Assembly: GCA_049318985.1 (NCBI GenBank)
Contig: JBMOEI010000031.1
Coordinates: 2,417 to 34,416 of the forward strand
DNA length: 32,000 bases
From: Desulfuromonadaceae bacterium
GTDB lineage: Bacteria; Desulfobacterota; Desulfuromonadia; Geobacterales; Pseudopelobacteraceae
Direction of reading: 5' to 3'
The notes beneath the pieces were generated by a model, which saw only the letters and a list, made by a program, of their open reading frames with translations, was not told where the DNA came from and made no database searches. Shown here piece by piece: positions 1 to 17,158 of the stretch (position 1 is its first letter; each line of letters begins with the position of its first letter). The translations under genes and the position numbers were made by a program.

Positions 1-1109
1 GGTTGTCGTGCATATTTTTCAAGATCAAGAGTTTTAGGAGGCAAATCCAGTGTTTGCCGGTAGTTGTCATCCACTTCAATAATATCTTTTAAAAGTTCTT
101 CCGTTTCGGGAATGCTGATTCTGTGAGCGAGATTAGATGTATCTCCGTCTGCCATTGCCATCATGATAAAATCTGTTTGAGCCCTTATTTTTTTGCCGTA
201 TGCCCAAGTAAGAACATTTTTGTATGCTTGGCGATTCCCTTTCATTACAGGGCAGCTGATCTGAATAGGAATGTCGGCATTTAGTAACTTTTCGATGGCT
301 GAGAGTGTCCTTTGGTGGGAACCCGGCAACTTGGTTATTGCATCGTGTTCAATCGGGTTCATGCTGTAAACCGATACCTGCACCATGTTGACGTTGATGT
401 CTTTGAGTAGGCTAACAATCTGATCGTCAATAAGTGTTACATTGCTTAAAACGGAGATAGAGAAATCCTTCTCCCGTGCATGGCGTAGTATTTTTTCTAC
501 ATCTTGATGCATAAACATCTCGCCACCACTTAAAATGAGCCCCACGGTACCCATTTCTGCAAATTGGTTTAAGGTGTCAATTACGATGTCAGTATCAAGA
601 TCAGTAGTCTTCTTTTCATGGGGAATGTAGCAGTGAACACAGCGTTCATTGCATCGGTTTGTCAGTTCAATTTGAGCCGCAAAAATGGTTGGCCGCTCAT
701 GGAATTGCTCATAAAAGAAAGCAGATGTGTCGGCCATGCCGGGCTTTCTGTCTGGTTCCATGAAGTTAATAGTAGCCGTTTTCGGATTTTCCCCGGCATA
801 GCTGAAAAAGGGCTCTTTTAGATCAAGCTCTGCCTCGCTTTGACCGGTTACAACATAGCTATGTCGCTCAAGGTCGTCAATAAAATCGGTAAAGTCATCT
901 TTGATCGTTTGGTAGTCAACATCTTCAAATTTGGCAAATATTACGTGAACTATTTCCTCAACTGTACGTGCCTTACGGGACAAACCCGTCAAGAAAACTC
1001 CACCAGCATCATTATAAACTCTGTCATGTTTAGTCAGTTGGCTGGTTACGTAGCCAAATTCACCGTAATTACGGGTAAAAGTATTTTTGCATAGCCTGAC
1101 CAATTTCAT
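1..1109 (-). CDS. Radical SAM peptide maturase with N-terminal PqqD/RRE-like domain (partial; 3' end lies beyond window start)
   Basis: Absent from the ORF track because it has no in-window stop. My translation of the minus strand from ATG 1109..1107 stays open to position 1 (~369 codons). The N-terminus MKLVRLCKNTFTRNYGEFGYVTSQLTKHDRVYNDAGGVFLTGLSRKARTVEEIVHVIFAKFEDVDYQTIKDDFTDFIDDLERHSYVV... looks like a PqqD/RRE leader-binding fold. It is followed by the radical-SAM cluster motif CNERCVHCY (coords 627..653) and a GGE-type motif LILSGGEMF. RBS AAGGAAG lies ~8 nt upstream. Any SPASM/C-terminal part is not visible. Confidence 0.85.
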   Translation of the reverse strand, partial: MKLVRLCKNTFTRNYGEFGYVTSQLTKHDRVYNDAGGVFLTGLSRKARTVEEIVHVIFAKFEDVDYQTIKDDFTDFIDDLERHSYVVTGQSEAELDLKEPFFSYAGENPKTATINFMEPDRKPGMADTSAFFYEQFHERPTIFAAQIELTNRCNERCVHCYIPHEKKTTDLDTDIVIDTLNQFAEMGTVGLILSGGEMFMHQDVEKILRHAREKDFSISVLSNVTLIDDQIVSLLKDINVNMVQVSVYSMNPIEHDAITKLPGSHQRTLSAIEKLLNADIPIQISCPVMKGNRQAYKNVLTWAYGKKIRAQTDFIMMAMADGDTSNLAHRISIPETEELLKDIIEVDDNYRQTLDLPPKTLDLEKYARQ

Positions 1110-1186
1110 TTTCTAACTTCCTTTTGTATTTTTGAAATACATAAATTTGATATGAAAAATAACAGCTTAATCTGTATGCAGTGTTG

Positions 1187-1219
1187 TAAAAAAAATGCCG
1201 GGAGCAACGCGCCCCCGGC
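1187..1219 (-). terminator. Rho-independent terminator / attenuator between precursor peptide gene and maturase gene
   Basis: Read on the minus strand: GCCGGGGGC-GCGTT-GCTCCCGGC (9-bp stem including one G.U pair) followed directly by A-TTTTTTTT. It starts ~10 nt after the precursor A stop and ends ~80 nt before the maturase ATG. Confidence 0.7.
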
Positions 1220-1229
1220 TGTTGCGAGA

Positions 1230-1349
1230 CTACTGTGCGACAAGACAATTTCTGCAACTACCATGACCCGGAAGCTTTTCTGGACAACCCGCAGCATAAC
1301 TGCCTGCCGGTTGGTTCTGTGCAATAACAACTGGTTTTTTGTAAGACAT
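1230..1349 (-). CDS. RiPP precursor peptide A (39 aa, 3 Cys)
   Basis: Below the ORF-track size cutoff. ATG 1349..1347 is preceded by AAAGGAGGTGAT (GGAGG ~8 nt upstream). Translation: MSYKKPVVIAQNQPAGSYAAGCPEKLPGHGSCRNCLVAQ*. It lies directly upstream of an RRE-radical-SAM gene and shares its first ~15 residues with the neighbouring peptide B. Confidence 0.75.
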   Translation of the reverse strand: MSYKKPVVIAQNQPAGSYAAGCPEKLPGHGSCRNCLVAQ

Positions 1350-1410
1350 TAGTATCACCTCCTTTTTTGTTAGGATGTGCTTTTCAAGGCACTTTTGTGT
1401 TTTTCACCCA

Positions 1411-1506
1411 CTACTTAGGACCGCACCGAGTTGGCAAATTCGATGAAGCGGAGAAGCACCCTTGCGGCAGGTTCTGTGCAACAACTACTGGTTTTTTGTA
1501 AGACAT
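1411..1506 (-). CDS. RiPP precursor peptide B (31 aa, 2 Cys)
   Basis: Below the ORF-track cutoff. ATG 1506..1504 is preceded by the same AAAGGAGGTGATACTA RBS block as peptide A. Translation: MSYKKPVVVAQNLPQGCFSASSNLPTRCGPK*. The leader MSYKKPVV[IV]AQN is conserved and the C-terminal core diverges. Confidence 0.7.
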   Translation of the reverse strand: MSYKKPVVVAQNLPQGCFSASSNLPTRCGPK

Positions 1507-1531
1507 TAGTATCACCTCCTTTTTGTGAGAT

Positions 1532-1552
1532 ATGTGCCTTTTGATGGCACAT
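1532..1552. promoter_or_regulatory. Palindrome ATGTGCC-N7-GGCACAT upstream of precursor B (operator or 5' RNA stem-loop); a weaker copy lies at 1375..1393 upstream of precursor A
   Basis: A 7-bp perfect inverted repeat lies 26 nt upstream of the peptide B start codon. No U-tract follows it on the coding strand, so it is not a canonical terminator. Confidence 0.35.
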
Positions 1553-1605
1553 TTTGAGAACATTGTTTTCTCTCTAAAGCCTTTCCGTTCTACTATTTCT
1601 GACTG

Positions 1606-1896
1606 TCAGTCATTTTGAATTTTAACACAAAGAGTGCAATCGCTCGCTGGGTTGCCTTCAACCACTTCTTTGATGATTTTTGTCATTTCTGGCCTGTCAA
1701 CAAAAACACCTTCAAGTTCACCAGCAGAATATTTTGAATTGGCGAGTATAGAGGCATGTTTGATTTCCTCGCCACCTTCAAAGACACACTCATCATGTTT
1801 TTTACATTGTTCAAGTACTCCAGCTTCAATTGCAATTCTTAACGCCACTTCTCTTTTGGCTTCATAGTCTTCCAGCATTTGTTTTCCGCTGCCCAT
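1606..1896 (-). CDS. Hypothetical protein (96 aa, four Cys in two pairs CKKHDEC / CTLC)
   Basis: ORF-track 1606..1935. I prefer the internal ATG at 1896 (MGSGKQMLEDYEAK...) because GGAGAA lies ~8 nt upstream. I recognise no family motif. Confidence 0.5.
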   Translation of the reverse strand: MGSGKQMLEDYEAKREVALRIAIEAGVLEQCKKHDECVFEGGEEIKHASILANSKYSAGELEGVFVDRPEMTKIIKEVVEGNPASDCTLCVKIQND

Positions 1897-1944
1897 AGTT
1901 GTATTCTCCAGCGAGTTGATTTTAAGAATCCACATAAAGACATT

Positions 1945-2289
1945 TCAATTTGAAATATCAAGTCGCCATACGAATTCTTGCGAACACGGTTGCCCAATTG
2001 TATCAGTGACCCGAGTTATTACAACTTCATTACCATCAAAATGCAGATCATAATTCATTCGGTATTCAACGCACGCAATTGAATCTTCATCCCATGTAGT
2101 CCATCTTTTGCTTAGCGTATCCACACCAACATGCACTGTTCGATTATCATAAAGCCAAGCTTGCATCAAACTATCATGAAGGTCATATTTGGTGTCACTT
2201 GACTCTTCGATCAGCACCATATTTTCGTCATAAATATAGATACATACCTTTGGTGGCCATTTGCCTCTTTCATGTGGCTTGATAGTCAT
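1945..2289 (-). CDS. Hypothetical protein (114 aa)
   Basis: ORF-track entry MTIKPHERGKWPPKV..., same strand and tightly spaced with the downstream ORF. No recognisable motif. Confidence 0.45.
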   Translation of the reverse strand: MTIKPHERGKWPPKVCIYIYDENMVLIEESSDTKYDLHDSLMQAWLYDNRTVHVGVDTLSKRWTTWDEDSIACVEYRMNYDLHFDGNEVVITRVTDTIGQPCSQEFVWRLDISN

Positions 2290-2555
2290 AGTATACCTCG
2301 CTTTGATTTATCAACAACTGACCTTTCAGATGCCTCCGCCAAGTCAGTTGGTGGGTCGCGTTTGCTTCATCAACGCAACGTTTGTGGTATTGCCTCCAAC
2401 ATTGTAACATTGCGTTTACGATAAGCTGTTCAACACAACCAATAAAATCATCTCAAACTGTTCCACCACATCCCTACCACAAATCCCTAAAATCTACCAC
2501 TTGCATAATCAACCGCTTGACGTGACGATTGAGCGTCTCCGTCTCCGTTTTCGCC

Positions 2556-2626: not shown

Positions 2627-3427
2627 TCAAGGTGCTGCTGTCGTTTGCACCTTCAATTTTTTCATCTTCTCCAGCAACATACTGCGAAGTTTGACTATTG
2701 TCTGGTTGAGCGATACCTTCTGGTCATCGGTCAAAATTGCACCGTCCAGCAGATAGATCCTTTCATAAAATTGATCCACAAAAGCTAGGTCTACAGGCGC
2801 TCCAGTCAGCTTTGGTTTTGCGGCTTTTTTCCTCAGTTCACCCACTGTGAGACCGTTCTCCTTATATTTGTTGTAGAGTGCAGTCATTTTTTCCGGATTC
2901 TTTTGACGTGCTATAAGCGCAAGGATAATCCGGCCTGCCTTGGGTTCATTGCGGCAATCATTCTTCACAGAATCAGGCAGTTTATTGAGAGAGAGGATTT
3001 CAGAAAGTGTCGAATCAGATTTGCCAAGAACAAGAGCCAGATCACCCAGCGTGTATTCATGCTGAGCCCGCAGTTTCTCAATCGCCTCTGCTTCTTCAAT
3101 GGCTGTCAGGTTTTCGCGTAGCAGGTTTTCAACTATGGAAAGCTCCGCTGGATCGCCATCGGTAAAAACAGCCGGAATAGTCAGACAGCCAGCTAGTTTT
3201 GAAGCCTGAAAACGTCGCTCACCGGAAACCAGCAGCAAAGTGCCATCTGTACCCTGACGCACAAGAACAGGTTGCAGAACACCATGCTTCTCAATCGACA
3301 CTTTTAAATCTGCTAGGGCTTGCTCGTCAAAATATTTGCGCGGCTGCTCCGGGTCTGGTTGCAGATCAGCGATGTTTAGATCATACAATTTTCCTTTTTC
3401 GTAGTTGACTTGTGTCGATTTTGCCAT
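2627..3427 (-). CDS. ParB/Spo0J-like nuclease-domain DNA-binding protein
   Basis: ORF-track 2627..3457. I start it at MAKSTQVNYEK (ATG 3427, RBS CAGGAGAT). ParB-box motifs are present: LQPVLVRQ...LLLVSGERRFQASKLAG, and an HTH-like segment YTLGDLALVLGKSDSTLSEILSL. Confidence 0.8.
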   Translation of the reverse strand: MAKSTQVNYEKGKLYDLNIADLQPDPEQPRKYFDEQALADLKVSIEKHGVLQPVLVRQGTDGTLLLVSGERRFQASKLAGCLTIPAVFTDGDPAELSIVENLLRENLTAIEEAEAIEKLRAQHEYTLGDLALVLGKSDSTLSEILSLNKLPDSVKNDCRNEPKAGRIILALIARQKNPEKMTALYNKYKENGLTVGELRKKAAKPKLTGAPVDLAFVDQFYERIYLLDGAILTDDQKVSLNQTIVKLRSMLLEKMKKLKVQTTAAP

Positions 3428-3517
3428 GACGTATCTCCTGTGAAGCCAAGTATTCAAAGCGAAGTAATAGTATCAAAAATCAAAGCATTAGCAATCTGAA
3501 AAAATGACCGACCTGTC

Positions 3518-5131
3518 ATGACCTATCGCCGTTGGATCAGCGAGATCGAGAACAACGGTACCGCCACGGAAGCCCGGACGCACAACAAGCAGCTTCCGTA
3601 CATCCGGCTCTTGAAGCGGATACCGTTCGACCTCGCCATCTTCGACGAAGCCCATAACGCGGCCAACCTGATGAGCAATCAGGGGACCGCGTTCATCCGG
3701 CTTGCCGCAACCGCCAAGAAGGTTCTTGCCCTCACCGCCACCGTGACCAACGGCATGGCGAAATCCATCTACAACATCCTGTGGGGGTTGAATCCAATGC
3801 AAATGCGGAGTGCCGGCTGGGAGATGAAGTCGGCTACTGATTTCCAGACCAAGTACGGAGCGTTCAAGACCGTCAGGAAAACCGATGAGAAAAACCGTCA
3901 CCGTGAATCGGAGCGTGTCACCACCTACGATACGGCTGGCATCTCACCGGCAGCCCTGATATTTACGATTCCCAACTTCGTCAATGTGGACAGTGACGAC
4001 TTCGACGATCTCCCACCGGTAGAACGGGAGGTAATCAAGTGTCAATCACACGCCTTGGTGGAAACCTGTCACCGGAGCATCGAAAACATCATCGAGAAGG
4101 CAGACCTGCCGCCGGAAGACCTCCTGGCAGCTGCAGCCGTCCGCAATGCCGCGTTCCTGCGCGTAAGCGATACGTTCCGGCATTACAACGACGAACTGAA
4201 ACTGCGGGATATTCCGCTTGGCACACTGCACCGGCTGTCGCTTCCCGACGGGGAGCTGCTGCTGGAAAAAGAAGAAAAACTGATTGGTATCGCCCAGGGG
4301 GTGATCGACAGGGGAGAGCGTCTGCTGGTCTATACCGGCAACACGCAGAAGATCGACATGCGCCCCGTCTTGAAACGCATCCTTCGGGATAACGTGCAGG
4401 GCGCCAGCATTGAGATCCTGCCCGACTCGGTTGCTCCAGAAAAGCTGGTCGGCTGGTTTGAGCAGGTAACGGCTCAGGTCGTTGTTGTCTCGTTCCACCG
4501 CGTCGCCACGGGTCTCAACTTATCCCAGTTCAATAACCTGGTCTGGTACGACTACACGTCCAATACCAGGCTGGCCGAACAGGGGGACGGCAGAATCCGT
4601 CGCGTCAATACTGCTGATATCCACCGGGCCCAGTTCGGGGAAGTTCGCCCCGTCCGTTACTGGTATCTCACCTCTTCGGAAGTCCAGGCATTGCAGCTCG
4701 CCTACACTTTAGAAAAGAGGATGGTCGCCAAACTGGCGGAAGGGGAAACACCGGACATCGACCCGGCTGAATGCAGCAGCAGCCAGTCGTTTTCATCCCT
4801 GATGACGAAGGCGCTCAAGGAGGGGAACTTCAACTACACGGACCCATCGTCCCTGTTGAAGAAGATGACCCAGCATGAAAACGCCCGAGTCAGGGGCGAC
4901 AACAAGGCAGAAGCGCCGATTAAAAGCAACATCATCCATCTTCCTACCACCAGGCCGGAACCTGCTCCAACTCCATCATCCATTGCCGTCATCCATTGTG
5001 AAGACGGCAGAGAGGTCACTCGGGACTTGCCATTTGGCATGTACCAGCCCTTGCTGGATGCGGGAGTCCTGGAGTTCACCCTGTTTGGCGTCTATGTGCG
5101 TAATCCCGCTCCCGGGCGGAAATACGCCTGA
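3518..5131 (+). CDS. SNF2/DEAD-like helicase, N-terminally truncated (possible gene remnant)
   Basis: Helicase motif II AIFDEAHN is at residue ~41, motif III LALTATV follows, and C-terminal motifs VVVVSFHRVATGLNL and QGDGRIRRV are present. No Walker A/motif I exists anywhere in the ORF. The reading frame opens only 6 codons upstream of the ATG (stop at 3497..3499). An abrupt AT-rich to GC-rich transition occurs at ~3490-3520. Confidence 0.7.
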   Translation: MTYRRWISEIENNGTATEARTHNKQLPYIRLLKRIPFDLAIFDEAHNAANLMSNQGTAFIRLAATAKKVLALTATVTNGMAKSIYNILWGLNPMQMRSAGWEMKSATDFQTKYGAFKTVRKTDEKNRHRESERVTTYDTAGISPAALIFTIPNFVNVDSDDFDDLPPVEREVIKCQSHALVETCHRSIENIIEKADLPPEDLLAAAAVRNAAFLRVSDTFRHYNDELKLRDIPLGTLHRLSLPDGELLLEKEEKLIGIAQGVIDRGERLLVYTGNTQKIDMRPVLKRILRDNVQGASIEILPDSVAPEKLVGWFEQVTAQVVVVSFHRVATGLNLSQFNNLVWYDYTSNTRLAEQGDGRIRRVNTADIHRAQFGEVRPVRYWYLTSSEVQALQLAYTLEKRMVAKLAEGETPDIDPAECSSSQSFSSLMTKALKEGNFNYTDPSSLLKKMTQHENARVRGDNKAEAPIKSNIIHLPTTRPEPAPTPSSIAVIHCEDGREVTRDLPFGMYQPLLDAGVLEFTLFGVYVRNPAPGRKYA

Positions 5132-5214: not shown

Positions 5215-5733
5215 ATGTCAAACAACATAAATCAGGACGAACCGACCAACGAGGAGCGTGCCGACCGAATCGACACGGTTATGCAGGCCTACTGCCTGAC
5301 ACTCGAAGGCCGGGATTTCGATGGCGACGAAGATGACGTCAAGGACATGCTCACAGACCTGATGCACTTCTGTGAGCGGATGGGGATCGATTTTGAAGAG
5401 AATCTCCGCGTCGCCCGCAACAACTACAACCATGAACGGCTTGCGGAACAGGGCGATACCGGCCAGCTCGGCTACCCGGTATGCGGCTGCTTTCTGGAAG
5501 TCACCCGTACCGACACCCTGTTGGGGATCGACCGGGAACTGTACGACTGCCAGGAATGCGACGAGACCTTCATCCGGGAACTGAATGCCCCGGACAGTCC
5601 ACTCGAACGGGCCGTTAAATGTGTCGGCTGCGGCAACATGATTCCGCAGGCCTCAGCACGCATCCTGTACCAGCAGGACGACTACGCCCACTTCATCGGC
5701 GAGTGCTGTTGGGACGAACGGCTGCGAGACTGA
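5215..5733 (+). CDS. Hypothetical acidic protein with C-terminal Cys-rich (zinc-ribbon-like) region
   Basis: ORF-track entry with RBS AAGGAGA 7 nt upstream. Cys pairs: CGC, CQEC, CVGC, CC. Confidence 0.55.
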   Translation: MSNNINQDEPTNEERADRIDTVMQAYCLTLEGRDFDGDEDDVKDMLTDLMHFCERMGIDFEENLRVARNNYNHERLAEQGDTGQLGYPVCGCFLEVTRTDTLLGIDRELYDCQECDETFIRELNAPDSPLERAVKCVGCGNMIPQASARILYQQDDYAHFIGECCWDERLRD

Positions 5734-5746
5734 AAGGAGACTGACA

Positions 5747-6259
5747 ATGACCCTTAACGCGACGTTACAGGCGGCACGGGATATGGGAGTGCCAGTGCGT
5801 TACGCAGTAATGCGCCGGCTTGCCTTTCTGCAACCGCACATCAAACATCTGGAGCGTGAAATCTGGGGAGCACGACGGCGGATAGAACACAGTCGCGATC
5901 CTCTGGTTAAGGCCCTGACTGAATCCTTTATCAGAGACCAGGAAAAGGAGCTGCGCCCCCTGAAACGGGAGGCGACGGCGCTCCTGAACCATGTCAACGG
6001 CAAGGAGACGGTGCAGACGCCCGGCGGGATCACCCCGGAGATGATCGACCAAGCCCGGCAGTATCCCATCACCAGCATCATCGACTTCCCCAAGGGAAGG
6101 CACCGGTGCTGTCCGTTTCATGAGGACAGCAATCCATCAATGGCTCTGTATGACAACCATGTCCACTGTTTCGTCTGCAACCGGTCATGGGATTCCATCA
6201 GCGCTGTTATGGAGCTGGATGTGGTGAGCTTCAGGGAAGCCGTGTTGGCGCTCCAGTAA
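5747..6259 (+). CDS. CHC2 (DnaG-primase-type) zinc-finger domain protein
   Basis: CPFHEDSNPSMALYDNHVHCFVCNRSWDSISAVMEL matches the C-x-H-x(n)-C-x2-C CHC2 finger. RBS AAGGAGA upstream. No TOPRIM region is present, so this is a stand-alone finger as commonly seen on ICEs and plasmids. Confidence 0.75.
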   Translation: MTLNATLQAARDMGVPVRYAVMRRLAFLQPHIKHLEREIWGARRRIEHSRDPLVKALTESFIRDQEKELRPLKREATALLNHVNGKETVQTPGGITPEMIDQARQYPITSIIDFPKGRHRCCPFHEDSNPSMALYDNHVHCFVCNRSWDSISAVMELDVVSFREAVLALQ

Positions 6260-7284: not shown

Positions 7285-8532
7285 TTACGCAATCTTTCGC
7301 AAGGTTTTTTCTGCCTGTTCCCCCACCAATTGCATCAAGCGGTACAAGGCATCACATTTATAGGGGGAGAATCCTCCCTTGAAGAGCTGCAAGCGGTTGT
7401 CCTCAATCTTCTTTGCAAGATCGGCAACACGGGTCAGCACCAACCGTGGCTTGATGCCGATCTCCTCGGCAAACTGTTCCCAATGCTTTTTCTGGATTGC
7501 GTTAGGATCACTCTCGCCACCAATCTTCATAGCCAGACCTTCCGCTAACCCGTAATGGGCGTAAATCCTCGTCGAAAGCAGATCGTAGAATGGGGCCAGC
7601 ATCGGTCCTTCCGGCAACAGTAATAGAGAGATGTTCTTGCCATGCGCATCGGAGTTGCCAATCAGGTAATTGAAGATCACCCAGTTCAAAAGCGACAGCA
7701 CATCCTTGCCGGACCTGATGCTGGCAGTGCGAACCAAATTGAAGCATGCTGCCAGAGACGGTCCACCTTCGGATTCATACTTGTATTCAGGTGGGATATG
7801 GAGCGCCTGGCAGAAATCTTCCTGATGCAACCGCCTGGTATCATCGCCGACAATCACGCGATCAAAGCGCTTGACGATGAATACACGTGTTTCCCCATGT
7901 TGATGGATGAATGATCGAGGTACATCCAGGCCAACCGAGTTAGCCAGGGCCATGCAGAATGCTTCGTTTTCCACCGTGCCATCCAGGTTCTCGATGGCTG
8001 GTTTGATGATGTAATTGGAAGGAGCGGTGCCATATCCCAGATGAAATTGTTGCTCATCATAAAAGATCGGCAGCTTTTTCTGGGCACCGGCCAGTGAGAG
8101 CCGTATCCCTTTCTCCCCTGCCAGAAGTGGCCGTTGCGGGAGTTCACTGATAATAGTGTTGAGTTCATCCAGCGTGAGCTGGCGATAGGTGCCGGGTTCG
8201 CGTTTCGGTTCTCCGGTCTCAGGATAGAGTGAAACCGCACCGGCGCAATCACCGCCGATCCGCTCCAGGAGCCCATAGTCGTTATTGAGGGAAACACCAA
8301 GATTCCGGGCAATCACGGCACGGATTTTTTCTTCAGGAAGGAGGTTGGCGAAAAAGGGATGTGACTCATCGTCGGAATAGGGGGCGGCACGTAAGGGCAA
8401 CGAGAGGGACAATGGGATTCTCGACTGCTCCAGCCACTCCTTGTCGTACTGGAAGCAGAAGTGCTTCTTCTCATCAAACCAGAGCCGCCCCACAACATCT
8501 TCATCTATACTGACAAGCAGGCCGATAGTCAT
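7285..8532 (-). CDS. hipA: HipA-family serine/threonine kinase toxin (type II TA)
   Basis: ORF-track 7285..8592, trimmed to MTIGLLVSIDEDVVGRLWFD (ATG 8532), which overlaps the hipB stop as ATGA. Motifs: N-terminal coupling domain, GGDCAGAVSL, SLAGAQKK (P-loop-like), and catalytic loop NSDAHGKNISLL. Confidence 0.9.
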   Translation of the reverse strand: MTIGLLVSIDEDVVGRLWFDEKKHFCFQYDKEWLEQSRIPLSLSLPLRAAPYSDDESHPFFANLLPEEKIRAVIARNLGVSLNNDYGLLERIGGDCAGAVSLYPETGEPKREPGTYRQLTLDELNTIISELPQRPLLAGEKGIRLSLAGAQKKLPIFYDEQQFHLGYGTAPSNYIIKPAIENLDGTVENEAFCMALANSVGLDVPRSFIHQHGETRVFIVKRFDRVIVGDDTRRLHQEDFCQALHIPPEYKYESEGGPSLAACFNLVRTASIRSGKDVLSLLNWVIFNYLIGNSDAHGKNISLLLLPEGPMLAPFYDLLSTRIYAHYGLAEGLAMKIGGESDPNAIQKKHWEQFAEEIGIKPRLVLTRVADLAKKIEDNRLQLFKGGFSPYKCDALYRLMQLVGEQAEKTLRKIA

Positions 8533-8765
8533 GATTCGTCTCCTGGAGTTGCCCACGTACGGATACTCGCATCCAGCTCGATTCCGAGGCACTTGATGAC
8601 CTGCAGTACCTTGTTCAGGCGCACGGTCTCCTTGCCGTTTTCCAGAGCAGACAGAAAGGCATAACTTACGCCACAGACTGCAGCCGCATCTTCCAGGGTG
8701 AGGCCATCGTCTTTACGTTTCTGTTTGATGAGCCGTCCAATGTCTATTGCACTTGTAATCTTCAT
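8529..8765 (-). CDS. hipB: HipB-like XRE-family HTH antitoxin
   Basis: IGRLIKQKRKDDGLTLEDAAAVCGVSYAFLSALENGKETVRL is a Cro/C1-type HTH. There is a 4-nt overlap with hipA. Confidence 0.85.
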   Translation of the reverse strand: MKITSAIDIGRLIKQKRKDDGLTLEDAAAVCGVSYAFLSALENGKETVRLNKVLQVIKCLGIELDASIRTWATPGDES

Positions 8766-8790
8766 TTCAAAACCCTCTCCATAATATATG

Positions 8791-8845
8791 CGTTCGTATA
8801 TTTATAGCAGTTAGAATGAGACATTAACAGCAAAATATACGATCG
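8791..8845. promoter_or_regulatory. Candidate hipBA operator: inverted 13-mers CGTTCGTATATTT / AAATATACGATCG
   Basis: Arms at 8791..8803 and 8833..8845 (1 mismatch) lie 26-80 nt upstream of the hipB start. Each arm also sits within a local palindrome (AATATA-N8-TATATT; TACGATCGTA). Confidence 0.35.
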
Positions 8846-8966
8846 TAGATATGGAGACGCTATAAGCCAGCGGAACGGAAAATTATCTGCGTTTATAGAT
8901 GAGAGTACGGAGTATGAGGATTGAGTCAACTTGGTGGCGTAATCTGAAAGTGCAGCCATAAATTCA

Positions 8967-9404
8967 TCAGTGTACTTCAACCTGCTTAGCGGTACACATC
9001 CGGGTAGATATTTCACAGGGATGATCAGGCTGATCACGCCACCATTGCTTGTCTACGACAGAAGAGCAACCCCCATCTTCCAATAGCCCCTTGCGCCCAC
9101 TCTGATCGCACACGAGCACAACAGCATGACCGTTAACCCCTTGCGCTTTTAAGAGATATCCCACAAATGGCTCTTTCAGTCGTGGATCATGGCTGGTTGA
9201 AAAATCTACCAACTCCATATCCTTCATTTCTGCCGGTGCTTCCTTGAACAGCACTTTCTCTTCCACTGCTGTAGTCAATTTAGTAAGGGCAGAAGCCAGT
9301 GAGTACATTTCTTCTTTATCCGCAACGTTGTAATGGGCGCACCCGGAGCTGAAGATCAGCAGGGAAAACAGTATCAGCCGCACACCGATGTTGAATTTTT
9401 TCAT
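8967..9404 (-). CDS. Lipoprotein (145 aa)
   Basis: ORF-track 8967..9461, trimmed to MKKFNIGVRLILFSLLIFSSGCAHY, a signal peptide plus lipobox (FSSGC). The start is 3 nt after the stop of the upstream PLC-like gene. Confidence 0.7.
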   Translation of the reverse strand: MKKFNIGVRLILFSLLIFSSGCAHYNVADKEEMYSLASALTKLTTAVEEKVLFKEAPAEMKDMELVDFSTSHDPRLKEPFVGYLLKAQGVNGHAVVLVCDQSGRKGLLEDGGCSSVVDKQWWRDQPDHPCEISTRMCTAKQVEVH

Positions 9405-9406
9405 TA

Positions 9407-10336
9407 TTACCCCCAGAAAATGAGATTGTTTGCCTGATCCCTGCCGGTATCTAAATTCCACTCACCGAAACGCGCCAGAATTGTGTCGTTGCCGTTGAAT
9501 GTCCCACGCGCTATATCCGCCCATACTGTTGCTACATTGTCCACTGCCTCAGTGTAAATATCTGTATAACTCATGGTTCCGTTGGGAATCTTGAGGCCTT
9601 CAATATACTGTTTGTCTATCTGCCCGGGCAAAGGATAGACCATTCCTGAATCTGCTGCGAGATGTCGGGCAAAAGGAAATAGATGATTTCCTGCTGATGA
9701 TATTGTATCTACAATCTCATTGAACCGCTCATGCCACTTGTGAATGTCAGGAGGATTAGCGGCAAAAATATCCGGGTGGACAGCTTTCATCAAAGCACTC
9801 CAGAACGAGATAATGTCAGCATCCAGCTTATCGTCATCATCCGGTGCAGAGCATGCGCCAATACCTGATGCTAGATGGTCTGACACTCCAACCCCTCCAA
9901 GATCAAGCCTCTGGAAGATAAAGGCATCCTGGTGCATTTCACATACCCTGTGTTTCGTTTTATTCTCTTCATACGTGCCGACCTTGAGTTCGATTACCGG
10001 ATGAACCGTCATGTCTGCGGTAACATGCGAGGAGTACCCCAGCAGCCACGCCAGACATTTGTACTTCTTCTCTCCATCAATGGCTCGAAGCAACTTTGAG
10101 CCTTCCCGGACCATCGCTCCCGTGTGGGTGTAGTGCATCAGATCAGACCATTTTGCGGCATCGCTGTCATCTACAGCCAGGTACGGATAGTCAGGGCTTA
10201 CAGCTCCCAGTTCTGCAAACTTGAACCAGCGCAGGAATGCTTTTGATGCTTCTTTCGGAAAGTCAGGAATGGCAAGAAGCTTATCGGTGTTCCTGAATTC
10301 ATTAACTACCGATATATGCGCGTATGCTCCAGGCAT
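9407..10336 (-). CDS. Zinc-dependent phospholipase C-like family protein (no signal peptide)
   Basis: His/Asp pattern typical of the Zn-PLC/P1-nuclease-like superfamily: N-terminal MPGAYAHISV, GAVSPDYPY, LMHYTHTG, GYSSHVTADMTVHPVI, CEMHQDAF. The call comes from motif recall only. Confidence 0.55.
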   Translation of the reverse strand: MPGAYAHISVVNEFRNTDKLLAIPDFPKEASKAFLRWFKFAELGAVSPDYPYLAVDDSDAAKWSDLMHYTHTGAMVREGSKLLRAIDGEKKYKCLAWLLGYSSHVTADMTVHPVIELKVGTYEENKTKHRVCEMHQDAFIFQRLDLGGVGVSDHLASGIGACSAPDDDDKLDADIISFWSALMKAVHPDIFAANPPDIHKWHERFNEIVDTISSAGNHLFPFARHLAADSGMVYPLPGQIDKQYIEGLKIPNGTMSYTDIYTEAVDNVATVWADIARGTFNGNDTILARFGEWNLDTGRDQANNLIFWG

Positions 10337-10353
10337 AGTTTCCCCTTATCAAC

Positions 10354-10373
10354 AAAATTTGCCAGCAAATTTT
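10354..10373. promoter_or_regulatory. 20-bp palindrome AAAATTTGC-CA-GCAAATTTT just upstream of the PLC-like gene
   Basis: Perfect 9-bp arms starting 18 nt upstream of the start codon at 10336. Confidence 0.35.
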
Positions 10374-10483
10374 CCGGTGATATTGATATTTGCAGCCACA
10401 TCAATTCCCGCCCAAAGGTTAGCATGCGGCCACGACACATGAATGACCATCGACATCCACACCACCGAAAAAAACTTCAGACC

Positions 10484-10660
10484 TCACGGCGACAAGCGAG
10501 AGCTTTTGACCTTATTCTCGCGATCAATGAGCCGTTGCGCCCATTCTTTCGCCCCTTGATATCGTTCCAGTTGTGTCGCACTTGGCAGTTGACCGCTGGT
10601 CATGGCACTGGATGCCTCCAGTAATTCCTGGAGCGATGCCAGCAGATCCTCATTACTCAT
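10484..10660 (-). CDS. Small hypothetical helical protein (58 aa)
   Basis: ORF-track 10484..10675. I prefer ATG 10660 (MSNEDLLASLQELLEASS...) with GGAGG 8 nt upstream. Confidence 0.45.
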   Translation of the reverse strand: MSNEDLLASLQELLEASSAMTSGQLPSATQLERYQGAKEWAQRLIDRENKVKSSRLSP

Positions 10661-10789
10661 TACAGAAACCTCCATTTGTTGTTATCCTTCAGCCTTGATT
10701 CTGCTTGCCACATCCTGAAAGAAATCGTGCGAACGGTATCGGTTGTAGCAGATACCCTTTTCCATGAGAGTCCGGCTGATGCAGAATAT

Positions 10790-11065
10790 TCACTTGTTAA
10801 TTGCATCCCTAAGCAGATTGCTCGGCTTGAACGTCAATATCCGCCTCGCTTCAATGGTGAGCGCCTCACCTGTCTGCGGATTACGACCACGGCGGTCAGC
10901 CTTCTGTTTAACGATAAAATTGCCAAAGCCGGATATTTTAAGATTCTCACCGGATTCGAGCGTGCTTTTCATAATGGCAAAAACTGCTTCTACCATCTCG
11001 GCTGATTCTTTGCGTGTCATGCCGATGCTTTCCTGAACCTTTTCAAATATGTCTGCTTTAGTCAT
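10790..11065 (-). CDS. HU/IHF-family DNA-bending protein (IHF-alpha-like)
   Basis: ISGFGNFIVKQKADRRGRNPQTGEALTIEARRILTFKPSNLL is the classic HU/IHF beta-arm signature (GFG-F...R-x-G-R-N-P-x-T-G). RBS AAGGAGGAAG. Confidence 0.9.
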   Translation of the reverse strand: MTKADIFEKVQESIGMTRKESAEMVEAVFAIMKSTLESGENLKISGFGNFIVKQKADRRGRNPQTGEALTIEARRILTFKPSNLLRDAINK

Positions 11066-11112
11066 GATTCCTGCTTCCTCCTTGAAAATTTATCATACTG
11101 AGAATGTACGCG

Positions 11113-11328
11113 TCATACTGTTCCAAACCGCTGCTTCAACTGCTCAATGGTATGATTCCATTTGTGTGTCTTCGGGCGGGTAACCGTATTCTGGTTGCCG
11201 AAAAATCCTACCTCTGAGACGGCCTCGTTTGTCGGCTTTGTGCAAATCCATTCGACTGGCACAAAATATTCGGACTTTTCTTCGTCGTCGTTGAATTGGC
11301 GATGATAATTGGACTGTGCGACATCCAA
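11113..11328 (-). CDS. Hypothetical small protein (71 aa), possibly a C-terminal remnant
   Basis: ORF-track entry directly downstream of hsdS. No convincing RBS seen and no recognised motif. Confidence 0.3.
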   Translation of the reverse strand: MDVAQSNYHRQFNDDEEKSEYFVPVEWICTKPTNEAVSEVGFFGNQNTVTRPKTHKWNHTIEQLKQRFGTV

Positions 11329-11353
11329 CAGAGATCGTTCGACTCCGTCAAAA

Positions 11354-12544
11354 TCAAATCAGGTCTCCACGAAATGCTTTATCCAGAATCGACGGCACCA
11401 TGGCATCCAGTTCGGTGGCAGTTTCGGTCTGGAGGCGTTTGAGGGAGTCAATCTTGGCTTGGAGGTTGTCCAGGTGGGTGACGATGTTGTGCTGTTCTTC
11501 AATTGACGGTAGCATAATGGGAAACTTTCTTATGGCTCCGATATTGAGATGAGGTGATGCTGAACCTTTAGAGAGCGGAACTATCTGATCTTGCTGAATA
11601 ATCGGCGAGAGCCATTGGTACAAAAGGAATTGCGGTAGAATTTTCCGGGAATCAGGGCGAACTTGCATAACTCTTTGCCCTAAGCTCATTTTATGACCTT
11701 CTTCAACAATGCCGGCTTTTCCGGTTCCTCCACCTTCTCGAACGATGATAATGTCTCCTGGTACAAGTTCTCCCCTCCGAGTTCGACGAAGGTACTCATC
11801 TTCACTTGTTCTCAAAGCTGTTTCGGGAAAAAGTTTGCCCCATCCTATATCCGGAGATCGGAGTGTTGGAATTCCCGAATCGGAATATATCGCGTTCGAG
11901 TGTAAACAATCGATTATGTCAGTGCAAAGCGATGCAAGCACTGCACTCCCATTATATTTCGACATAGAGAACAAGTTGCGGGACGTGCTGTGTAACAGCG
12001 CCTCCGTCTCCTCCACCGCATGCCGTCTGAGCCCCCGCGCCTCCTTAATCTTCGCCGTCAGCTCTTCAATCCGCGCAACAATGCACCGTTGTTCGGCCAG
12101 CGGTGGGAGGGATATTTCCATGGCAAGAAACTTCTCTTCTTTGAGGCGTACCCTGTTAGTTGTACCTTCACTGGCTGCCTTACAAAGTTCAACAAATCCT
12201 GATGTCTTGCTTAACCACTCTAGGAACTTCGGTGTAAGCCTTTCCTGATTCAAATCGAATGCCGGAAAATCATTACTGACAACCGCTCCATCAAGCATTT
12301 CAGGGACAAGACCAAAAGCACCGTTGCGGGCATCAATCCGCGAAAGTATGAACTGGCCTTGCCGGACAATGGCTCGCCGTGATGCCGTCATCTCTGTGCC
12401 AGAGACCTCACGGCGTAGCACAACACCCTTGCCCCAGAGTTTGATCGTCACTTCCCGATAAAAGGCATTTGGGTCAATAGAAACCAATTCCTCAGACTTC
12501 TTCAGCACCTCTCCAAGCGCCACCAGCGGCCACGCGCCACTCAT
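11354..12544 (-). CDS. hsdS: Type I restriction-modification specificity subunit HsdS
   Basis: Two target-recognition halves are separated by the conserved helical spacers LPPLAEQRCIVARIEELTAKIKEA and LPSIEEQHNIVTHLDNLQAKIDSL. The ATG overlaps the upstream stop (ATGA at 12541..12544). Confidence 0.9.
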   Translation of the reverse strand: MSGAWPLVALGEVLKKSEELVSIDPNAFYREVTIKLWGKGVVLRREVSGTEMTASRRAIVRQGQFILSRIDARNGAFGLVPEMLDGAVVSNDFPAFDLNQERLTPKFLEWLSKTSGFVELCKAASEGTTNRVRLKEEKFLAMEISLPPLAEQRCIVARIEELTAKIKEARGLRRHAVEETEALLHSTSRNLFSMSKYNGSAVLASLCTDIIDCLHSNAIYSDSGIPTLRSPDIGWGKLFPETALRTSEDEYLRRTRRGELVPGDIIIVREGGGTGKAGIVEEGHKMSLGQRVMQVRPDSRKILPQFLLYQWLSPIIQQDQIVPLSKGSASPHLNIGAIRKFPIMLPSIEEQHNIVTHLDNLQAKIDSLKRLQTETATELDAMVPSILDKAFRGDLI

Positions 12545-13380
12545 ACGCCCGTCATCCTGAGAAGTTCCGAGACGAAACCAACGACATCCGCCTGCATCTC
12601 CGCGTCCTCGGCCCCGGAGGCAAAAAGCGCCACCCGCATCGGTCCGAGTGCTCTTTCGTCAAGAAAATCCTCGCGAAGAATAGCGACAGCACGACGACCA
12701 GGGGCGGTTTCAATCAGGTGGCTAAAAAAAGCAGCGACGTCTTCCGTGCCGCTACCATAGTTTCTCGTCATGTAGTAAAGATCGTAGGCATCTTTGAATT
12801 TCCCGCGATTGCGGAACGCCAGCGCCTTCAGGATGACAAACGCACCTGGATTACACACGGGGATTTCACGCGATGCGGTTTCACCAAAAAGGGTCGTCCC
12901 GTCAAGCCTGACTCTAATCCGCTCACTAAATGCGATTTCAAGCCCCTCGATAATAAAAGCGGCCAGGCCCTTTTCGAGTGATTGTAATTTCCCTGGGACT
13001 GCCTCTTCATTGATCGGCGGAATAAGAAATTCTATTTTTGCTGACGGATTTCGCGTATGGGTCCAGCGCTGACGGACTTCATTCCCTTTATTACTGATGT
13101 CAGGGGTAAAACCCGAATCCCTCAAACGCTCCGCGATACCCTCGTACCGATGATCATCAAGAATTGCCAGATCAAGTCCAAGATCAAGATCCATCGTACC
13201 TACATGCGGTTCGGCTCCGATTGGGAGTGCTGTCGGAGGGATGAGGAGGCTGGGCACCAATCCTCCGACAACAACCAGATCATCCATATAATCGCCGAGT
13301 ATGGTCGCTGCCGTAAGGGTGGCGGCACGGATCAAGTCAGTCTGTTCGGGGGTATAGTCGGCGGCAGTGTGAAACGTCAT
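12541..13380 (-). CDS. AbiEii/AbiGii-family nucleotidyltransferase toxin-like protein (DUF1814-like)
   Basis: NTase-like VVVGGLVPSLL...HVGTMDLDLGLDL motif, size ~280 aa, paired with an upstream wHTH protein and overlapping it by 4 nt (13377..13380). Confidence 0.6.
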   Translation of the reverse strand: MTFHTAADYTPEQTDLIRAATLTAATILGDYMDDLVVVGGLVPSLLIPPTALPIGAEPHVGTMDLDLGLDLAILDDHRYEGIAERLRDSGFTPDISNKGNEVRQRWTHTRNPSAKIEFLIPPINEEAVPGKLQSLEKGLAAFIIEGLEIAFSERIRVRLDGTTLFGETASREIPVCNPGAFVILKALAFRNRGKFKDAYDLYYMTRNYGSGTEDVAAFFSHLIETAPGRRAVAILREDFLDERALGPMRVALFASGAEDAEMQADVVGFVSELLRMTGV

Positions 13381-14429
13381 GGGAACTCCAGATTTTTCCG
13401 CAACTCGGTAGCTGCTTCTTTAGCCCGTTCCGGGAGGGATTTCAGGTCAAGCCAGACCTGGATGCGATGAACACAAGGAATGTCGGCAACGGGTTGTATG
13501 CCGTAAAAGAGATCGGGGTCTTTCGGAATGATCAGCCAAACATTGGCTCCGGAGGTGTTTTCCCGGAAGCCGATCTGTTCCAGGATATGCTTGTCCGGCC
13601 ACTCTTTCAGATACATGGTAACAGTGCGAAACGCGGCAAACCTGGAATACAACCATGCAGCCCCCAGCCCGGTGGCGGCATGATCAACAGACAGACTTTT
13701 CAAGGTGCTGCTGATTTTCCCTTGAATCTCTTCCCCGGATCGTCCGGCCACATGGCCGCGCAGTATCTCATGCTTTGTGAAATCGTACCCTTGCTGCCAC
13801 GCATCCAGCATTACTTCTGACTTGGCGACAATGAGTTTCCCCTGATTGTCACGGGAGATAAGCTGCTGGGCTTCAAGTGATTTAACGATCCGGCTGACAA
13901 ATCCTTCCCCCAGACCTGTTTCGTCTGCCAGCTCCCGTTGCGTCCAGGCACGGTTTGTTTGATACAGCATGTGTCGGGCAATTCGCGAACTTTTCGGGGC
14001 AAAGGGATTTTCATTGCGCCCGGGGGAGATGAACTTGTTCTTTTCGCCACGGACGAAGAGACGGAGGCCGGGAGCGGTAATATCGGCATTGCCCGAGAGA
14101 TCCAGCCAGGAAACACCGGCCTCGGCGCACTTACCAATCCCGGTTTCTCCCATGAATGGTGTAACCAGCAGTCGAATATCGGAAGGTTTGGCGGGGTAGC
14201 GTATCAAATGCTCAATGCCGGCGGCAACAGAGCCAATCAGGGGTGATGACTTGTACTCAACTACGAACCGGAATCCACCTGCCTCCATAACAAGGTCTGG
14301 CCGGTATCTTTCGCTTTGCGGAGTACCTGTAAGAGGCTCGTAGTCAACCCTGTCGGCGCTAACACCGATGAGCTTCTCCAGCCGGTCTACCACCTGTTTC
14401 AACGCATTTTTCTCATGTTCAATCTTCAT
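13377..14429 (-). CDS. AbiEi-like antitoxin/transcriptional regulator with N-terminal PD-(D/E)xK-like module
   Basis: Central winged-HTH SRIARHMLYQTNRAWTQRELADETGLGEGFVSRIVKSLEAQQLI. N-terminal RPDLVMEAGGFRFVVEYKSS resembles a D...E-x-K nuclease-fold core. Genomic pairing with an AbiEii-like NTase. Confidence 0.5.
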   Translation of the reverse strand: MKIEHEKNALKQVVDRLEKLIGVSADRVDYEPLTGTPQSERYRPDLVMEAGGFRFVVEYKSSPLIGSVAAGIEHLIRYPAKPSDIRLLVTPFMGETGIGKCAEAGVSWLDLSGNADITAPGLRLFVRGEKNKFISPGRNENPFAPKSSRIARHMLYQTNRAWTQRELADETGLGEGFVSRIVKSLEAQQLISRDNQGKLIVAKSEVMLDAWQQGYDFTKHEILRGHVAGRSGEEIQGKISSTLKSLSVDHAATGLGAAWLYSRFAAFRTVTMYLKEWPDKHILEQIGFRENTSGANVWLIIPKDPDLFYGIQPVADIPCVHRIQVWLDLKSLPERAKEAATELRKNLEFP

Positions 14430-14430
14430 G

Positions 14431-14466
14431 CTTTACTTTTTACCACTACTTTACTTATTTGTAAAG
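14431..14466. promoter_or_regulatory. CTTTAC / CTTTAC / GTAAAG repeat set upstream of the AbiEi-like gene (candidate autoregulatory operator)
   Basis: CTTTAC at 14431..14436 and 14449..14454, with the inverted copy GTAAAG at 14461..14466, in the AT-rich 83-nt hsdM-abiEi gap. Confidence 0.3.
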
Positions 14467-14512
14467 GCGGTTATTTTAGTGAAGTGGCTGATCTTATTTT
14501 TGCATTTCCCTT

Positions 14513-16048: not shown

Positions 16049-16096
16049 TTATGGCTCCGAGGCGCAAATGGTGAATGAAAATTGCATGGATGTCGT

Positions 16097-17089
16097 TTAC
16101 TTTTTAGTCGCTAAATTGATAGACATAATAAAAGAGGTCACAGCTTCAGCGCTATTATCAGCAGTGGGGTCAGAATCTGGGACCAGAGTGCTTTCTACTA
16201 AAATCGAACCACCATGTAATTCAATAATTGAATTCGCAACTGCCAATCCAAGTCCTGTGCCTCCTGAGTAAGTTGTATAAAATGGTTGAAAAATCCGCCT
16301 GGAATAGATGTCGTCCTTTGGGATGTATTTGCCGATATTACTTACTTTTACAAATGCCGATGACCCAACCCGATACACATCTATTTCTATGGGATACTTC
16401 GAATTGCCAAATTGCTGGGCATTAATAATCATATTAAGAATGACTTGGCTAAGTTGGTGGGTATCACCAAATATCTCGCACTGACTCATGTGCTGATTTA
16501 ATTGGATCTCATAGCGGTTATTTGTATCATTCACCAAATTATAGGCCTCATTAACAATCTGCAAAAGATTAACTCGCGAAAAACCAACCGGTAATGCTGT
16601 GATGCTGTATATCTGCGGCATAATCGCTAAGATAAGCTTTTGTACTCCAGCCTCCAAATCTGGGAATAAGTCTACGCGATGTATCTCCGCTAACATCGGA
16701 TGTTGAGGTTGACAGTCATCAAGTCGCACAGGGAGAAGATATATTTTATCAGGAGGCATTGTTTCCATTACCTCAATGGCCTGGCGCAGTTCTTTCTGCA
16801 CTACACCTCGTTTATTAACTGCATGATTTGACATCAACGCTATGAACAAATCAGATTGTATAATTGCCTTCGTGATTTCCTGTTTCCAATTTTGCCCTGG
16901 TTGAAGAGATTCTTCATCAAACCATATATATACAAGCTTATTTAGCCTTTTGAGGACACGATAAAGCTCTCTTGCCGAGTCGATGTCTTCTCTAGCATAG
17001 CTAAGAAATATTTGTTTCCTTTCGGGTATCATCACGTGATCTGACAGACCATCTAACCTCGTGAGCATATCCTGTAAATTGTTTGCCAT
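16097..17089 (-). CDS. TIR domain fused to histidine-kinase-type HATPase_c (GHKL) domain, no DHp/H-box
   Basis: N-terminal half: KQIFLSYAREDIDSARELYRVLKRL...WFDEESLQPGQNW...DLFIALMS...VVQKELRQA is a TIR_2-type pattern with the conserved Glu (E100). C-terminal half: N-box VILNMIINAQQFG, F-box IFQPFYTT, G2-box GGTGLGLAVANSIIELHGGSILVES. No HisKA phospho-acceptor His region lies between them. Confidence 0.75.
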   Translation of the reverse strand: MANNLQDMLTRLDGLSDHVMIPERKQIFLSYAREDIDSARELYRVLKRLNKLVYIWFDEESLQPGQNWKQEITKAIIQSDLFIALMSNHAVNKRGVVQKELRQAIEVMETMPPDKIYLLPVRLDDCQPQHPMLAEIHRVDLFPDLEAGVQKLILAIMPQIYSITALPVGFSRVNLLQIVNEAYNLVNDTNNRYEIQLNQHMSQCEIFGDTHQLSQVILNMIINAQQFGNSKYPIEIDVYRVGSSAFVKVSNIGKYIPKDDIYSRRIFQPFYTTYSGGTGLGLAVANSIIELHGGSILVESTLVPDSDPTADNSAEAVTSFIMSINLATKK

Positions 17090-17158
17090 TTTTATAACCT
17101 TTCAGATTAACGGCATTATGGTTACTGGATTCCCGTTATAGACAACCTGTGTTGACAA

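Follow-up and report, generated by a model that had tools for sequence, protein, structure and literature searches.

The window analysed here, a 32,000-nt stretch of a Desulfuromonadaceae contig in which all coordinates below are counted, carries at its left end two short precursor genes, pepB and pepA, followed by the gene of a radical S-adenosylmethionine (rSAM) enzyme; all genes of the cassette lie on the minus strand (Table 1). They belong to a real, widespread and uncharacterised family of rSAM-modified RiPPs (peptides made by the ribosome and modified after translation), which has a distinctive precursor and an unusual hydrolase partner. Judged by its sequence, the window copy is an atypical, two-precursor member of the family. 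In all likelihood the locus is a RiPP cassette composed of precursor(s), maturase and hydrolase. We also infer, tentatively and with a little less than even confidence, that the cross-links made in the peptides are Cys thioethers.

An initial annotation of this stretch had proposed two small open reading frames (ORFs), each preceded by a Shine–Dalgarno (SD) sequence, with a common leader and with diverging cores containing three and two Cys; both are present, on the minus strand, and its description of the locus proved correct throughout. It had also placed a hairpin followed by T8 between the precursors and the rSAM gene. A terminator scan finds this element with a stem of 10 pairs, eight of them G-C, at 1219..1197 and the T8 run after it; the RNA fold has an energy of -20 kcal/mol (z = -3.5), and none of 200 shuffled sequences folds equally well. 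The terminator is kept in two close relatives of the locus (L082 and L087, described below), and in 21 of 47 other loci a hairpin with a T-run directly follows the precursor. An AT-rich spacer of 88 nt separates the terminator from the rSAM gene. No known RNA element was detected by an Rfam scan of window positions 1-2400.

When one genome for each GTDB species was scanned by pattern and by tblastn for relatives of the maturase, at least 584 loci were obtained. The carriers listed are mostly Bacteroidales, Prevotella/Segatella, Muribaculaceae, Paludibacteraceae, Fibrobacter, Treponema and other spirochaetes, and Akkermansia; among the matches listed there are also single carriers in Elusimicrobiota, Lachnospiraceae and others. 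Gene neighbourhoods were counted in the best 80 of the at least 584 loci. A same-strand precursor ORF of 37-61 aa with a shared design was found in at least 68 of the 80, and also in L082 and L087, so that the small ORFs are conserved beside homologous rSAM genes. The occurrence of a pepA-type ORF next to a homologous rSAM gene in so many genomes from several phyla is beyond chance. Most of the loci in which no peptide was detected are on contigs that begin too near the enzyme gene.

The precursors consist of a leader, M-(K)-x-Y-x-K-[PAV]-x-h-h-A-[KQ]-N, a core block, x-P-x-G-S-[YF]-A-A-G-C-P, a hypervariable loop of 6-29 residues and a C-terminal end, C-x-x-C-[ED]-R-x-x. Conservation of these parts was counted in an alignment of 71 peptides, with only the anchorable ones entering each count. 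The Ala ahead of [KQ]-N and the Cys of G-C-P are both present in 70 of 70 precursors, the Asn of A-[KQ]-N in 66 of 70, and the aromatic residue of G-S-[YF]-A-A-G-C-P is Y in 57 and F in 13 of 70. In the tail, an acidic residue follows C-x-x-C in 63 of 68 precursors and exactly four residues follow the second Cys in 67 of 68; three Cys in total are found in 51 of the 71 peptides. The loop varies in length and sequence even between loci that are 80-90% identical. The leader MSYKKPVVxAQN, singled out in the initial annotation, is thus conserved, but the conserved part is longer than was supposed: it continues through G-S-Y-A-A-G-C-P and is joined by the C-terminal C-x-x-C-[ED]-R-x-x. By these features we assign pepA of the window to this widespread precursor family; its leader is the one for which the initial annotation knew no family.

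The precursor gene is usually located 5' of the rSAM gene. In about eight loci it is found between the genes for the rSAM enzyme and the amidohydrolase (see below), an arrangement that ties the three genes together; it was noted in L023, L025, L029, L032, L047, L048 and L076 (~5510-6040). A second, divergent tandem precursor, MSYVKPAFYAQTAPEGIYAASCPMKTGVTNFCSCKIGK, which ends in C-x-C and not in C-x-x-C-E, was seen in L079 (115-422), and a similar divergent precursor with a C-x-C end is the sole form detected in L059 (1129-1245); these C-x-C-ending precursors may form a sub-type.

Six peptides of the family were scanned against NCBIfam and Pfam, and none was assigned to a family at E ≤ 1; a word-index protein search with the 42-aa pepA ORF gave no match. 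Against 1.84 billion representatives, phmmer returned only ~22 small-protein clusters at E < 1e-3, and none of the 10 clusters that were looked up has an informative name. A metagenome DNA scan with the back-translated leader retrieved only two contigs, one of them new.

The architecture of the enzyme is that of a peptide maturase. The fragment encoded in the window matches Pfam Radical_SAM (1e-23) and carries CNERCVHCY at residues 153-161; this cluster motif, C153-N-E-R-C157-V-H-C160-Y, is invariant in 19 homologues. The N-terminal PqqD-type RiPP recognition element (RRE) that had been proposed to precede it is supported by a Pfam PqqD match at residues 33-84 (E 3.2e-5; 24.6 bits, narrowly above the cut-off of 23.4 bits), and PF05402 is precomputed on many homologues of the enzyme. 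Since the SPASM region lies beyond the left end of the window, it was read from a full-length 484-aa protein of a Desulfuromonadaceae metagenome-assembled genome (P0001), which is 100% identical to the window fragment and carries PF13186 (SPASM), and from L001, an independent 4.8-kb Logan assembly that extends the locus to the left of the window and contains an identical pepA. Eight Cys of the SPASM region (C372, C380, C390, C430, C433, C439, C442 and C462) are invariant in 19 diverse homologues.

The AlphaFold2 (AF2) model of the maturase, with a predicted local distance difference test (pLDDT) score of 86, consists of an N-terminal domain, a disordered linker (113-126), an rSAM barrel and the SPASM region. 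The N-terminal domain has a beta3-alpha3 topology, three or four strands followed by three helices at residues 3-82, with pLDDT of 86-95. Foldseek aligned the model along its whole length (~500 columns) with CteB, SkfB and SuiB, which are the three RRE-rSAM-SPASM/twitch peptide maturases of solved structure, the alignments to CteB and SuiB taking in the N-terminal RRE region, and a profile search of PDB sequences gave SkfB (1e-21), PqqE (1e-18), CteB (2e-10) and SuiB (2e-10). With this architecture, and with these four as the nearest solved proteins, the enzyme does not fall into a non-peptide family; it is a predicted RRE-rSAM-SPASM peptide maturase.

Extension of the locus to the left, as the initial annotation had advised, uncovered a SPASM domain and an overlapping third gene; a conserved transporter or protease, for which it had also recommended looking, was not found. 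In L001 the rSAM gene is followed, just outside the window, by a gene for a 253-256-aa protein of the Amidohydro_2 family (PF04909, 6.5e-12), and in both L001 and L082 the start of this gene overlaps the rSAM stop codon. A homologue is encoded immediately downstream of the enzyme in 64 of the 80 loci, as it is in the close relatives. The invariant motifs D-x-H-x-H, K-x-H, H-T-G, A-H-[CG]-R-P, D-T-A-F and G-[ST]-D-x-P comprise all the metal ligands of the superfamily (HxH on strand 1, K, a His on each of strands 5 and 6, and Asp on strand 8), which points to a metal-dependent, probably binuclear, hydrolase. The AF2 model is a TIM barrel (pLDDT 96) whose nearest solved neighbours by Foldseek are the uncharacterised amidohydrolase 3cjp, 4i6k, 4do7, LigI-type lactonases and ACMSD, with template modelling scores of ~0.7 and identities of 10-16%. 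It may represent a novel type of enzyme in RiPP processing. Identity as an amidohydrolase-related dinuclear oxygenase was rejected: these oxygenases have a C-terminal D-x-P-H-x-D/E motif (PMC13154177), which is absent here, the corresponding segment G-S-D-Y-P-L-D having no His.

We propose that the cassette would work as follows. An abundant short pepB-pepA transcript with perfect SD sites would end at the terminator, and read-through, or a weak promoter in the AT-rich spacer, would supply a smaller amount of rSAM-amidohydrolase mRNA, on which the rSAM SD is weaker. The leader, through Y-x-K-P-x-h-h-A-[KQ]-N, would dock on the N-terminal RRE/PqqD domain (residues ~1-98). The cluster held by C153-x3-C157-x2-C160 would cleave S-adenosylmethionine, and the 5'-deoxyadenosyl radical would take a hydrogen from a core residue; the SPASM domain, with its eight invariant Cys and putative two auxiliary clusters, would aid intramolecular cross-linking via the three conserved Cys. 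In the canonical tail, Glu/Asp stands four positions after the first Cys (i+4), and the C-terminal residue has this same spacing from the second; the third invariant Cys sits in G-S-[YF]-A-A-G-C-P, and the three together would enclose the hypervariable loop. The amidohydrolase, whose translation would be coupled to that of the maturase, would afterwards cleave an amide bond, and in this step the leader would most probably be cut off; the analogy is to PurAH, a dinuclear-zinc amidohydrolase that removes the follower peptide of bottromycin (PMC10885120).

For the tail, a precedent comes from PapB, which acts on CX3D motifs, joining Cys to the carbon beside the carboxylate, and needs both the thiol and the carboxylate (PMC10739248); it can also join Cys to the C-terminal residue (PMC12373016). 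The tail common to the family is of comparable make-up, with one CX3[DE] unit and with a Cys that lies four residues ahead of the C-terminus. The PapB substrate PapA (freyrasin) differs in having six repeats, in contrast to a single unit and a separate G-C-P Cys here.

Several results weigh against this scheme. A PapB-like rule does not account for the peptides of the window itself: in pepA the acidic residue is replaced by Leu, and from pepB the whole motif is missing. The eight SPASM-region Cys could fully ligate both auxiliary clusters, as in SuiB and anSME, neither of which is known to make thioethers. In an NCBIfam r20 scan the maturase reached the cut-off of no equivalog model, and the best scores were those of the heme-pathway models AhbD (126 bits) and NirJ2 (117 bits), against a cut-off of 500. 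The sacti- and ranthipeptide models, of the kind that the initial annotation had advised searching, all stay far below their cut-offs: AlbA 60.5 bits vs 850, SkfB (TIGR04403) 62 vs 300, StsB 83 vs 625 and PapB (NF047865) 72.9 vs 340; no SCIFF maturase model occurs at E ≤ 1e-10 among the NCBIfam matches listed. The solved structures closest to the hydrolase belong to lactonases, decarboxylases and uncharacterised proteins, with no peptidases among them, and no conserved transporter, exporter, protease or immunity gene was found near the 80 loci. The architecture of a peptide maturase, combined with scores below every NCBIfam equivalog cut-off, indicates a peptide maturase outside the curated subfamilies.

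The same results bear on a RiPP system without thioethers, in which the enzyme would form a C-C or C-N cross-link to the invariant Tyr/Phe, epimerise a residue or make some other radical change, the Cys serving as metal ligands or forming disulfides. We consider such a system rather unlikely. It would account for the invariance of the aromatic residue in the core block, for the eight SPASM-region Cys and for the unmatched sacti- and ranthipeptide models, and the C-C bond formers PqqE and SuiB are as close to the enzyme, in profile and in fold, as the thioether synthases are. However, the three Cys are the most conserved residues of the core, the fixed C-x-x-C-[ED]-x3-COOH geometry suits a carboxylate-directed thioether, and the exchange of Tyr for Phe excludes any chemistry that needs the phenol oxygen. 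Thioether formation is the reading we carry forward, with the confidence stated above.

The window's own precursors depart from the family pattern in different ways. The nearest relatives of the locus are the metagenome locus L082-84, with an enzyme 80% identical, and L087, a metagenome contig of 2.8 kb. In L082 a single canonical precursor, MSYKKPVVLAQNQPAGSFAGGCPSKSTGGGWCKECDRAQ, precedes a terminator like that of the window. L087 has a tandem pair as in the window, in which pepB reads MSYKKPAVVAQNQPQGCFSASSNLPTRCGNR and the tail of pepA is canonical, ...ACPAKTTSGANCKNCDRAQ; the variable loop of pepA is almost wholly replaced between the two. The tail of the window pepA, CRNCLVAQ, is non-canonical with respect to C-x-x-C-[ED]-R-x-x, and no other among the 68 tails has Leu in place of the acidic residue. 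Compared with CKNCDRAQ of L087, it differs by a block substitution with no frameshift.

The second precursor, pepB, has neither the G-S-Y-A-A-G-C-P block nor C-x-x-C-E. About 70 nt of near-identical DNA, which takes in a palindrome (GTGCC-N6/7-GGCAC), the SD and 13 codons from the start, is common to pepA and pepB, and the identity ends abruptly in the core. Ahead of each gene stands AAAGGAGGTGAT, its GGAGG lying 8 nt from the ATG. The palindromes, which lie 10-15 nt 5' of each SD, could stabilise the 5' end of the mRNA or serve as a processing site or operator; both are kept in L087, where a base change makes the pepA copy perfect (GTGCC-TTGAAA-GGCAC). Among 87 loci no ORF with the family leader and a non-canonical core was found besides the pepB of this lineage. 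Between the window and L087 the pepB core, GCFSASSNLPTRCG, shows four synonymous and no non-synonymous changes, which argues that pepB is translated and under purifying selection. We regard pepB as a lineage-specific second precursor maintained by such selection.

It is improbable, in our judgement, that pepB is instead a decaying duplicate of pepA that serves as no substrate, with maturation here confined to pepA or, in view of the aberrant tail of the latter, extending to neither peptide. Decay would explain the absence of both family core motifs, the confinement of non-canonical leader-bearing ORFs to this lineage and the Leu that pepA alone carries in its tail. Against it stand the identical core protein in the window and L087 in spite of the four DNA changes, and the retention of a perfect SD, of the leader and of the 5' palindrome. 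A near-identical leader switching abruptly to an unrelated core is, moreover, what RiPP loci with several precursors show. The gene directly upstream of the precursors (1606-1935, minus strand) encodes a 109-aa protein that has a lambda ea8.5-related domain; this gene is probably outside the cassette because it is kept upstream in L087 but absent from L082.

The cassette combines features known from several systems. Like CteB, which makes the SCIFF ranthipeptide thermocellin, and SkfB of the sporulation killing factor, the enzyme has an N-terminal RRE, a CxxxCxxC rSAM core and a SPASM/twitch region, with a Cys-containing precursor encoded beside it, and these two enzymes are the best fold (5why/5wgg, 6efn) and PDB profile matches. 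The enzyme identity is just 15-17%, however, and the precursor here has three Cys and an unrelated motif, in contrast to the six Cys in ~45 residues of SCIFF peptides. CteB has been reported with seven SPASM Cys (PMC10352776), compared with eight invariant ones here. The conserved amidohydrolase partner further distinguishes the cassette from the CteB and SkfB systems.

The order of elements resembles that of subtilosin sboA-albA, in which a small precursor gene with a strong SD and a stem-loop precede an RRE-rSAM-SPASM maturase; that operon layout gives an excess of precursor over enzyme. The alb operon differs in encoding transporter, immunity and protease genes, whereas only the amidohydrolase is conserved here. 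The bottromycin enzymes PurAH/BotAH resemble the latter in that a dinuclear-metal enzyme of amidohydrolase fold serves as a peptide-trimming step of a RiPP pathway. PurAH is not among the top 50 fold matches of the amidohydrolase, so that the likeness is one of precedent and not of shown homology, and bottromycin is made by YcaO and other enzymes with no RRE-SPASM enzyme.

The pathways of pyrroloquinoline quinone (PQQ; PqqA/PqqE/PqqD) and mycofactocin (MftA/MftC) are alike in uniting a peptide, a PqqD-type RRE, an rSAM-SPASM enzyme and hydrolytic excision without an exporter. Hence the peptide could be thought of as the precursor of an intracellular cofactor or metal-binding molecule, excised by the amidohydrolase, and not as an exported bioactive compound; we hold this to be quite improbable. 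The lack of a conserved transporter, immunity gene or protease is consistent with a cofactor, as are the unusual conservation of the G-S-Y-A-A-G-C-P block across phyla, the hydrolase as the sole other conserved gene and the second rank of PqqE among the PDB matches. On the other hand, the stretch that separates the conserved blocks is hypervariable, the family occurs patchily and in variable or mobile regions, and no partner dehydrogenase or other redox enzyme is conserved. The precursor motifs are unrelated to those of PqqA and MftA, and the PqqE and MftC models of NCBIfam score far below their cut-offs (88 bits vs 381 and 58 vs 265).

The window is part of a conjugative plasmid or of an integrative and conjugative element. 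The view that the locus is AT-rich and lies on a conjugative element is borne out by the GC content, 41.5% in window 1-2000 vs 52-55% in the transfer genes, and by TraG_N, TrbC and TraU at 23.9-31.6 kb. By this difference the cassette is low-GC cargo at the edge of a defence-rich conjugative element, and the window copy shows it travelling as such; cargo of mobile elements fits the patchy, cross-phylum distribution of the family. The flanks across the loci are a mixture of genes for protein kinases, AAA_14/DUF4143, HipA, PIN, AbiEii, DruA and transposases, none of which is conserved.

Table 1. Features of the cassette and of the remainder of the 32,000-nt window (positions on the minus strand are given as in the window numbering)
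Feature	Position	Strand	Remarks
Small palindrome 5' of pepB SD	1534..1550	minus	GTGCC-ATCAAAA-GGCAC
SD of pepB	1515..1523	minus	AAAGGAGG, read from sequence
pepB	1506 (ATG)..1411 (TAG)	minus	Predicted 31-aa precursor MSYKKPVVVAQNLPQGCFSASSNLPTRCGPK, 2 Cys; family leader, different core
Small palindrome 5' of pepA SD	1377..1392	minus	GTGCCTTGAAAAGCAC
SD of pepA	1358..1364	minus	AAGGAGG, part of AAAGGAGGTGAT, read from sequence
pepA	1349 (ATG)..1230 (TAG)	minus	Predicted 39-aa precursor MSYKKPVVIAQNQPAGSYAAGCPEKLPGHGSCRNCLVAQ, 3 Cys; assigned to the widespread family
Intrinsic terminator or attenuator	1187..1219	minus	GCCGGGGGC-GCGTT-GCTCCCGGC, then A-T8
SD of rSAM gene	1117..1123	minus	AAGGAAG, weaker, 7 nt ahead of ATG 1109
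rSAM maturase gene, 5' part	1109..1	minus	369 of 484 codons; runs off left end
ParB gene	2627-3457		
HipA	7285-8592		
Zn phospholipase C	9407-10336		
hsdS, type I restriction-modification	11354-12544		
AbiEii	12541-13380		Inside type I restriction-modification
Putative helix-turn-helix partner of AbiEii	13377-14429		Inside type I restriction-modification
hsdM, type I restriction-modification	14513-16048		
TIR-HATPase_c	16097-17089		
SLOG-patatin	17159-18790		
ThsB-like TIR	18847-19446		
hsdR, type I restriction-modification	20578-22953		
TraG_N, F-type transfer	23946-27545		1199 aa
TrbC, F-type transfer	29569-30384		
TraU, F-type transfer	30360-31598		

We consider it very unlikely that the cassette, as a module of a defence island, acts against phages or competitors and is not a conventional natural-product cluster: it adjoins type I restriction-modification, AbiEii, TIR/ThsB-like, SLOG-patatin and HipA genes on the conjugative element, and HipA, PIN, AbiEii, DruA, AAA_14/DUF4143 or protein kinases in other loci, but these neighbours are heterogeneous, with none conserved, co-location in variable islands is expected of any mobile cargo, and with PADLOC 2.0 the maturase matched only the generic rSAM core of the pVip (viperin) models (residues 147-294) and the amidohydrolase had no match.

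A bolder composite reading would join these elements into a RiPP class of its own: a double thioether, directed by carboxylates, would form at a C-terminus of fixed length, a further link would reach G-S-[YF]-A-A-G-C-P, and a TIM-barrel amidohydrolase, instead of a protease, would trim the product. The class would be a self-contained three-gene module spreading among gut and anaerobic bacteria in defence or cargo islands of mobile elements and acting in phage defence or interbacterial competition. As a whole this is doubtful. If it were true, the second, unrelated core of the window and the pepA lacking an acidic acceptor would show the enzyme accepting new cores.

The family is poorly represented in curated resources. 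NCBIfam r20, Pfam, PADLOC and Rfam contain no model for the peptide and none that the enzyme family matches at cut-off, and the hydrolase, for which there is no curated model of its own, is recognised only as generic Pfam Amidohydro_2. The precursors are mostly unannotated or named 'hypothetical'; the database names met were 'hypothetical protein', 'radical SAM protein', 'PqqD family peptide modification chaperone' and 'amidohydrolase family protein'. No description of the cassette was found in full-text searches of the literature, where large rSAM-RiPP catalogues may list it as an uncharacterised cluster; a RiPP-mining paper on Bacteroidales deals with a different cluster (PMC10352776). The fixed three-gene unit and the clear precursor motif make the cassette an easy target for heterologous reconstitution, and its cultured carriers include Fibrobacter intestinalis ATCC 43854, Treponema primitia ZAS-10 and Prevotella sp. 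HCN-7019. Radical SAM/SPASM RiPPs rank among the chief sources of novel peptide chemistry and of antimicrobials with a narrow spectrum.

Some further observations concern the surroundings of the cassette. A defence and toxin island spans positions 7285-22953 of the window. A 537-aa ORF on the plus strand (3518-5131), which overlaps a 137-aa ORF on the minus strand, has no Pfam match and resembles only faintly the helicase C-terminal parts of DrmD/ZorD. In about 11 of the 80 loci a Ser/Thr protein kinase-domain protein of ~430 aa is encoded at most 4 kb from the cassette (L007, 457-1755, and about 10 other Bacteroidales), and DUF4143/AAA_14 ATPases recur near it in about seven of the 80. Finally, a Cys-rich ORF of ~70 aa with the motif C-A-T-C-x-Y-W-x-G is present in two unrelated genomes (L001, 2781-2996; L031, 912-1109); in one of them it lies downstream of the amidohydrolase gene, in the other upstream of the precursor.

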